From a virus (lineage: Duplodnaviria > Heunggongvirae > Uroviricota > Caudoviricetes): a DNA stretch of 27,928 nucleotides. The notes below the pieces were generated by a model. That model made no database searches. It was not told where the DNA came from and was given only the letters and a program-made list of their open reading frames with translations. Shown here in pieces: positions 21,588 to 22,075 of this stretch. Where the stretch lies: IMG/VR virus record IMGVR_UViG_638341082_000007, positions 1 to 27,928 of that record, one strand, 5' to 3'. The translations under genes and the position numbers were made by a program. Position 1 is the stretch's first letter. Every line of letters starts with the position of its first letter.

Positions 21588-21977
21588 GTGAAATTGTTTT
21601 TTCATATGTTATTTTTTTGTTTGGTTATCTTTAATTCACCAGATAGCTATTCACAGATAAGTGTCGATGCATCAATCTCCGATATAAAGATTTGCTTTGC
21701 CAATAAAATAAAAAAAGATGGATACACAATGGACTTAAATGACATAAAAATTCCAGTTAACGCCAAAGAATTCGCAACATATAAAATGTCAAAATTTACT
21801 GGTTCATTATGGATAGAATCATCGACAGAAGGAAGGCCAACAAGGGAAGCGGGTATAATCCATGCTAACAGTCAAAGTTATAATATTCTATATGATGCCT
21901 TGCTGTTATGTAGCAAAGAATTATCTAATCAGTCTTATCTGTTACCAACTCCTGGATATGCAGCCACATCAGCGTGA
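21588..21977 (+). CDS. Small secreted protein (129 aa) with Sec-type signal peptide and two Cys; AT-rich cargo gene
   Basis: GTG start at 21588 preceded by AGGAAGG 7 nt upstream; hydrophobic N-terminus LFFHMLFFCLVIF; Cys at precursor positions 36 and 108; markedly AT-rich and on the strand opposite to the prophage late operon. Confidence 0.55.
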   Translation: MKLFFHMLFFCLVIFNSPDSYSQISVDASISDIKICFANKIKKDGYTMDLNDIKIPVNAKEFATYKMSKFTGSLWIESSTEGRPTREAGIIHANSQSYNILYDALLLCSKELSNQSYLLPTPGYAATSA

Positions 21978-22075
21978 CCAGTAAACGGCTAACTCCTTTC
22001 CATTACAACGCCTGCAAATCTTGCAAACTGGCTTACCATGAAGTCGGGGCTTTTTCATCCAGAACTGTACCTTTA
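21940..22075 (-). pseudogene. Diverged internal fragment of a second Q antiterminator gene
   Basis: About 135 bp at roughly 75-80% identity to 22310-22440 inside the intact Q gene (for example cagcgtgaccagtaaacggcta... against cagcgtggtcggtaaacggcta...); overlaps the 3' end of the plus-strand secreted-protein gene. Confidence 0.45.

Follow-up and report, generated by a model that had tools for sequence, protein, structure and literature searches.

A frame-broken remnant of a probable second Q antiterminator gene in the predicted late leader of an Escherichia coli lambdoid prophage

The 27,928-nucleotide stretch of viral DNA analyzed here (the window) is an E. coli lambdoid prophage with its late region on the minus strand. 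Downstream of its intact Q antiterminator gene it carries a second, partial copy of Q at 21926-22075 (minus strand), referred to below as Q'. Alignment, BLAST and translation identify this copy as a frame-broken, non-coding fragment from the interior of a Q gene, corresponding to residues 166-217. It is probably a dead piece of a second Q gene, left behind when illegitimate or relaxed-homology recombination took place in the hypervariable region that separates the late promoter from the lysis genes. The Q' scar is real, but scars of this kind are ordinary in mosaic lambdoid prophages.

The resident Q gene (22194-22946, minus strand) is an intact ORF of 250 aa. Its product matches Pfam PF03589 (Antiterm, E-value: 1e-51) and PHROG 127 ("anti-termination protein Q-like", E-value: 8e-103), and it is annotated as "antitermination protein" in 18 E. 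coli genomes. A DUF968 gene (24006-22960) adjoins Q on its upstream side. Along the late strand, Q is followed by 2.9 kb of DNA containing several small ORFs and three tRNA genes, after which come a TerB-family gene and then the genes for the holins, endolysin and terminase.

When the region downstream of Q (21400-22193) was locally aligned with the Q gene, a single strong match was found, pairing 21926-22075 with 22297-22449. This alignment sets 150 nt of the remnant against 153 nt of Q, with an identity of 72% (global) to 75% (BLAST; BLASTN E-value: 5.6e-16), and the remnant carries two deletions relative to Q, one of 2 nt and one of 1 nt. Its score was 59, compared with 12.2 +/- 1.4 (maximum 19) for 300 dinucleotide-preserving shuffles (z = 33.6). 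A repeat search recovered a 57-nt core of 79% identity in direct orientation, with a spacing of 372 nt. Q genes of other phages match the same stretch independently (E-values: 1e-17 to 1e-20), and the frame-corrected remnant peptide matches phage Q genes by tblastn with 64% identity (E-value: 3e-13). The remnant covers 52 of the 250 Q codons and is truncated at both ends. With tblastn and BLASTN, no other Q-like sequence was found in 21400-22193, and the flanks of the remnant are unrelated to Q on both sides. Extension of the homology into 22076-22101 and 21905-21925 was considered by eye, using a MAFFT alignment and the sequence; as it needs extra indels, it is not claimed. An earlier note, made from the sequence alone, had described a partial second copy of Q at 21940-22075, some 370 bp from its counterpart, 75-80% identical to Q residues 169-212 and flanked by unrelated sequence, and had proposed that it be aligned with Q and compared with chance. 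The copy is real and the description essentially right, the true extent being approximately 15 nt longer on the low-coordinate side.

The remnant contains stops in all three minus-strand frames, and its central 58 nt are put out of frame by the two deletions. It has neither a start codon nor an uninterrupted frame of approximately 250 codons. When the frame is restored, the peptide reads KGTVLDEKAPRLHGKPVCKICRRCNGKELSRLLVTLMWLHIQELVTDKTD and keeps the CxxC...NG motif of the Q C-terminal zinc-binding region. In a five-way nucleotide alignment of the remnant with four intact alleles, 24 of the 150 positions are private to the remnant, all four intact alleles agreeing there. These private changes fall on codon positions 1/2/3 in the ratio 11/7/6, while the sites that vary among the four intact alleles are distributed 5/3/20 (chi-square p = 0.004). 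Pairwise differences by codon position follow the same pattern (15/10/17 for the remnant and 5/3/19 for true alleles). The private divergence of the remnant is 16%, as against the 39% of third-position sites (20/51) that vary among the four intact alleles over the same segment. The concentration of differences at third positions that is the signature of purifying selection was not found in the remnant. Because its private changes are spread evenly over the codon positions, unlike those of the intact alleles, the remnant has drifted without coding constraint. Judged from its sequence, it is a dead fragment that has been in this state for a long time and is unable to make a Q protein.

Variation among the genomes that carry this prophage (described below) points in the same direction. 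Of approximately 15 carrier differences in 2.6 kb, 5-7 fall in 21926-22130, and this clustering in and beside the scar suggests that constraint is relaxed, not heightened. Gene conversion involving the remnant and the resident gene was also considered and rejected, as the carrier variants include no patches that have moved toward Q; the sole match to the Q state is at 21977 (A/G), where G is probably ancestral.

Comparison with other Q genes places the remnant, like the resident Q, in the PF03589 / QuuQ-mEp460 subfamily, on a branch near the split of these alleles. The remnant peptide is 54% identical to the resident Q and 64% identical to the Q proteins of mEp460, SfV and Stx2c phages. Among 152 family representatives taken from a HMMER scan of 1.84 billion proteins, the best identity was again 64%, within the subfamily of the resident Q, and the next clade reached 50%. 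Intact members of this subfamily are 85-88% identical to the resident Q over the segment that the remnant covers. At the nucleotide level, the remnant is 75-77% identical to mEp460/Stx2c-type alleles and 72% identical to the resident Q. Where the resident allele and the mEp460 group differ from each other, it sides with the mEp460 group at 12 sites and with the resident at 7, a split that is not decisive.

The earlier note had also proposed that a search with the remnant against other Q alleles could identify the donor lineage. This search was unsuccessful, with nothing closer than about 77% nucleotide or 64% amino acid identity. BLASTN against 5,426 E. coli genomes gave a best allele of 76.5% over 150 nt, and BLASTN against 50,697 phage records gave a best allele of about 77-79%. 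A word index of 5.8 billion proteins, queried with the corrected peptide, contained no candidate sharing three 5-mers, and both an exact 26-mer of the remnant and the degenerate pattern PVCKICRRCNG were absent from 185,579 GTDB species representatives. An exact scan of IMG/VR with the 26-mer returned four contigs, all of the same prophage (98.6-99.7% identity). As no closer allele was found and the 26-mer occurs only in this prophage, the remnant has been seen in this one arrangement only. Most of the excess divergence of the remnant is unconstrained private drift. As no donor allele was found, the second allele is inferred from the fragment itself.

The segment that follows the Q stop codon (22102-22193, minus strand) is recognizable by its similarity to relatives and includes a late-promoter-like site and approximately 26 nt of leader. 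The sequence that immediately follows the Q stop codon in mEp460, fEC.1, GPEC1185 and Stx2c phages is 87-91% identical to it. The hexamers, read from the sequence, are TTGCAT (-35, 22162-22157) and TAGAGT (-10, 22139-22134) with a 17-nt spacer, and we infer that they form a sigma-70-type late promoter. A BLAST piece at 22119-22195 was considered as a further Q remnant and rejected, since mEp460, fEC.1 and GPEC1185 show that it is the conserved late-promoter region after the Q stop. The conserved initial transcribed leader of approximately 26 nt ends in CTGCCGTT (22109-22102). Within about 10 nt of the leader end, the relatives have an intrinsic terminator (GAACCCGC...GCGGGTTTTTT), whose hairpin is absent from the window. 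In lambdoid phages, the short constitutive transcript from PR' ends at an intrinsic terminator, tR', which Q-modified RNA polymerase reads through. We take the arrangement of Q, promoter, leader and terminator to be the PR'-tR' late leader expected from established lambdoid biology. The window shares its promoter hexamers and leader of approximately 26 nt with its relatives, but their hairpin is replaced here by filler and Q', and there is no equivalent for 1.16 kb. A pattern scan for a hairpin followed by a T-run found no terminator-like site on the minus strand between 22127 and 20964. The first intrinsic-terminator-like hairpin after the late promoter is at 20947-20964 (minus strand; ACCGCCC-TCCC-GGGCGGT followed by T7).

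The position of the scar coincides with a break in similarity. When 21800-23000 was compared by megablast, every non-carrier E. coli genome (about 2,480) aligned only from 22100-22102 upward, with the best allele of the Q module 90.8% identical. The module thus ends inside the late leader, 93 nt beyond the Q stop codon. Approximately 25 nt of unassignable filler (AAAGGGGGGCTTCGACCTGCGGTAAT; 22076-22101, minus strand) separate this boundary from the remnant. By comparison with the relatives, they stand in place of the tR' hairpin, and they include a homopolymeric G-run and several SNPs, which differ between carriers (22080, 22087 and 22093). On the minus strand, the order is therefore Q, late promoter, approximately 26 nt of leader, approximately 25 nt of filler, Q' and AT-rich lineage-specific DNA. 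A functional Q is expected immediately upstream of its late promoter; the remnant is about 50-200 nt downstream of the predicted start. The hexamer TAAAGG occurs at both the leader junction and the remnant start, but is too short to count as evidence of microhomology.

Being at the homology break and next to lineage-specific AT-rich DNA, the remnant is best read as a recombination scar beside acquired cargo. The earlier note had read it as a scar of module exchange at the Q boundary, possibly marking the junction where cargo was acquired. In substance this reading is supported, as the fragment is truncated at both ends, has lost its frame and is located at the mosaic boundary 22100-22102. The junction, however, is in the late leader and not at the edge of Q. 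Nor does a single exchange suffice: neither end of the fragment coincides with an end of Q, which calls for at least two breakpoints. Q' does lie where cargo adjoins, but as one of at least three gene fragments in a replaced stretch of 1.5 kb it is not a unique marker of a single acquisition event.

This lineage-specific replacement (20580-22101) spans 1.52 kb in the window, corresponding to 1.94 kb of non-homologous DNA in an Stx2c phage that is colinear on both sides (91% identity in the Q-PR' module, 78.5% in the methylase 3' end and 84.6% in the tRNA-Ile/Arg cluster). Colinear homology resumes only at 20579. Down the late strand, the interval contains the filler, Q', an orphan ORF, tRNA-Gly(CCC), an inverted repeat, the terminator-like hairpin and a piece of a membrane-protein gene. 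The tRNA-Gly gene (CCC; 21326-21398, minus strand; ARAGORN; Rfam tRNA, 58 bits) is of phage type and presumably closer to the tRNA-Gly of phage T4 than to E. coli glyU. With tRNA-Gly2 of SerU (KU052038), an LT-IIb enterotoxin prophage, it shares 91% identity. The inverted repeat (21112-21205), between tRNA-Gly and the minus-strand terminator, has 26-nt arms that are 88% complementary and a 42-nt loop; its one Rfam match (mir-4847) is weak and meaningless.

At the far edge of the interval, PHROG and BLASTN comparisons identify two further fragments within 20314-20824 (minus strand): the N-terminus of a phage-434-type membrane protein (about 20585-20800) and the 3' end of a methylase gene (20314-20579). 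The ORF at 20357-20824 is a chimera of the two, with residues 9-84 matching the phage-434-type membrane protein (phrog_17164) and residues 105-153 matching the C-terminus of a phage DNA methyltransferase (phrog_6952). By BLASTN, these pieces are 76-78% identical to the ϕP27/Stx2c-phage methylase and the phage 434 membrane protein. Compared with its Stx2c-phage counterpart, the methylase piece contains a G-rich insertion of 7 nt, which breaks its frame at the edge where homology resumes, and PGAP marks this piece as a partial pseudogene. Together with Q', there are at least three protein-gene fragments, each about 75-78% identical to its nearest intact relative. Beyond them is a tRNA-Ile(CAT)/tRNA-Arg(TCT) cluster (19925-20174, minus strand), identified by tRNA search and BLASTN, at which the colinearity with Stx phages continues.

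Some minor features of these edges were also recorded. G-runs are present at or beside both breakpoints, at the leader junction (22085-22099; GGGGGG, minus strand) and at the methylase scar (about 20520-20535; GGGGGAGGGGGGG). The run at 22093-22098 varies in length among carriers, the window having one extra C/G compared with all others. This may be due to slippage or sequencing artefact, or may be a signature of the junction. Between tRNA-Ile and tRNA-Arg is a degenerate third tRNA (20018-20091, minus strand; Rfam 23.7 bits, gathering score 29), probably the remains of a tRNA gene. In the annotation of many related E. coli prophages, this cluster comprises one tRNA-Ile and two tRNA-Arg genes.

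The most likely history of the fragment can be outlined as follows. An earlier Q, either in this lineage or in a recombination partner, would have been cut back on its 3' side, where it now borders the AT-rich segment, and on its 5' side at the time the present Q-PR' module became joined to it from upstream. That join was probably made by a crossover in shared upstream genes combined with an illegitimate or low-homology join downstream, and the same event or events would have removed tR'. Since then, the fragment would have persisted in the late leader, transcribed but without a function. Experiments with lambda and ϕ80 (De Paepe et al. 2014, PMC3945230) show that lambdoid mosaics arise via recombination with resident prophages and that high divergence is tolerated.

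The orphan ORF of the replaced interval (21588-21977, plus strand) is oriented opposite to the late operon, in the region between Q and lysis. It encodes 129 aa, with AGGAAGG as a good Shine-Dalgarno sequence 7 nt before a GTG start and a signal-peptide-like N-terminus, and is AT-rich (GC content of the region 29-33%). Its last 17 codons and stop codon lie antisense inside the Q' remnant. The product has no Pfam or PHROG match, only two near-identical protein clusters among 5.8 billion proteins are homologous to it, and an AlphaFold single-sequence model is unusable (pLDDT 41). Even among near-identical carriers its C-terminus varies: TGA in the window gives 129 aa, TGG in most carriers gives 134 aa, and there is one frameshifted version. 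The annotated C-terminus should therefore not be taken at face value.

Evidence for a function of the remnant itself was sought at the RNA level. The late-strand RNA from the predicted start through the remnant (22127-21900) folds no better than shuffled sequences (z = 0.43), no Rfam family overlaps 21926-22101 at E <= 1, and a scan for terminators and promoters found nothing for the remnant on the late strand. On the plus strand, a terminator-like hairpin with a T-run is located inside the remnant (22028-22047), but it is weak, having three G-C pairs, and the T-run simply reflects the complement of the Q codons that specify DEK(R/K). The remnant thus appears to have no function of its own, and its contact with the orphan ORF, to which it contributes a 3' tail and stop codon, is incidental. 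Transcription from an active late promoter would nevertheless include the remnant, which also overlaps the oppositely oriented ORF, and a secondary role is thus conceivable.

Three other explanations for the remnant have to be weighed against an exchange scar. Q contains repeated CxxCxGxG-like motifs (it also matches DnaJ_CXXCXGXG), and a 17-nt motif, CCATTACAA(C/T)GC, recurs three times, so that repeated CxxC-motif codons might in principle give a chance or compositional similarity. The colinear match over 150 nt, well above the best of the shuffles, and the independent matches to Q genes of other phages refute this reading, which we consider next to impossible. A more serious rival is that the resident Q underwent a partial tandem duplication in place and the copy then decayed, rather than a different allele being brought in by phage exchange. 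The direct orientation, the distance of only 372 nt from the counterpart and the common subfamily are all consistent with duplication, as are the seven separating sites at which the remnant sides with the resident, although these do not decide the matter against the 12 at which it sides with others. The distances, on the other hand, slightly disfavour duplication, since the remnant is a little closer to mEp460/Stx2c-type alleles than to the resident Q in both nucleotide and amino acid sequence. Furthermore, the promoter and leader between the copies are not duplicated, and as just an internal 150 nt survives, duplication would need as many later deletions as exchange. From these comparisons, duplication in place seems the less parsimonious of the two and is unlikely.

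It could also be proposed that the remnant has been co-opted, either by giving the orphan ORF its C-terminal 17 codons, stop codon and a weak terminator, or through a leader that, lacking tR', runs antisense through the ORF into tRNA-Gly and so couples expression to the state of the prophage. The end of the ORF inside the remnant, the plus-strand hairpin and T-run at that place, and the loss of the relatives' tR', with the next minus-strand terminator only at 20964-20947, are all in keeping with such a role. Against it, the ORF C-terminus is not conserved among near-identical carriers, the hairpin is weak and its T-run merely inherited, the leader has no stable or conserved structure, and the ORF is itself only predicted; we regard co-option as quite improbable. 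A related and similarly improbable scenario is that the recombination that made the scar both removed tR' and set a signal-peptide-bearing, AT-rich orphan gene, its tail made of antisense Q', convergent to the late promoter, in which case constitutive or Q-dependent antisense transcription would control an unrecognised secreted factor. An exchange scar without function accounts best for the remnant.

Gene remnants are known from mosaic junctions of lambdoid phages, where illegitimate or relaxed homologous recombination of phages with resident prophages gives rise to them (De Paepe et al. 2014, PMC3945230). Q' resembles them in being a truncated, non-coding part of a gene of which related phages have an intact copy. 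It likewise sits at the exact break of similarity, with other fragments alongside, in the hypervariable moron region between Q/PR' and the lysis genes. It differs from them in being a paralogous piece of a gene that is intact 372 nt upstream, in its location beyond the late promoter, at the place of tR', and in its age, the private neutral change being such that the donor cannot be named. Similarly, the remnant peptide is 64% identical to residues 166-215 of PF03589 Q antiterminators such as QuuQ/YdfT of the Qin prophage and those of mEp460, SfV and Stx2c-converting phages, but unlike these genes the remnant retains 52 of 250 codons, has no start, is interrupted by two frameshifts and by stops, and is downstream of the late promoter.

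The scar marks the breakpoint at 22100-22102 of a lineage-specific 1.5-kb replacement in the moron region, and its main value is for annotation. In this interval, decayed gene pieces (Q', methylase, membrane protein and degenerate tRNA) have accumulated around tRNA-Gly and the orphan ORF, which are both possibly live. Q' itself is a small, clean case of the non-functional scars that temperate-phage genomes carry for long periods, and it involves no new mechanism. In other lambdoid prophages, the region between Q and lysis is the site of the Stx genes. The prophage is restricted to human isolates, with strains from unexplained diarrhoeal outbreaks among them, and within it only the orphan ORF and the leader without tR' are perhaps worth experiments.

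The segment 21400-22200 is present in 18 of 5,426 complete E. coli genomes (99.0-99.9% identity). All 18 carriers are from human samples, the source being stool wherever it is recorded, and one is from the stool of a patient in Mexico. The carriers include Japanese O166:H15 outbreak strains without any known diarrhoeagenic marker gene, and at least three are outbreak isolates without known virulence genes (PMC12613895). Q' is kept in all 18 carrier genomes and in all four viral contigs, but as the carriers form a single, closely related prophage lineage (at least 97.5% identical) this retention says little either way. In strain E300082, the prophage region (NZ_JBRERL010000002.1, 60829-63431) is on a 261-kb record labelled as a plasmid and not on the chromosome, which may be a misassembly or a real relocation. 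Finally, a hypothetical gene of 187 aa (19298-19882; phrog_5091, unknown function) occurs in the window and in roughly half of the carriers and is missing with clean breakpoints from two of the four IMG/VR contigs (L010 and L011); it is an indel polymorphism within the prophage lineage.
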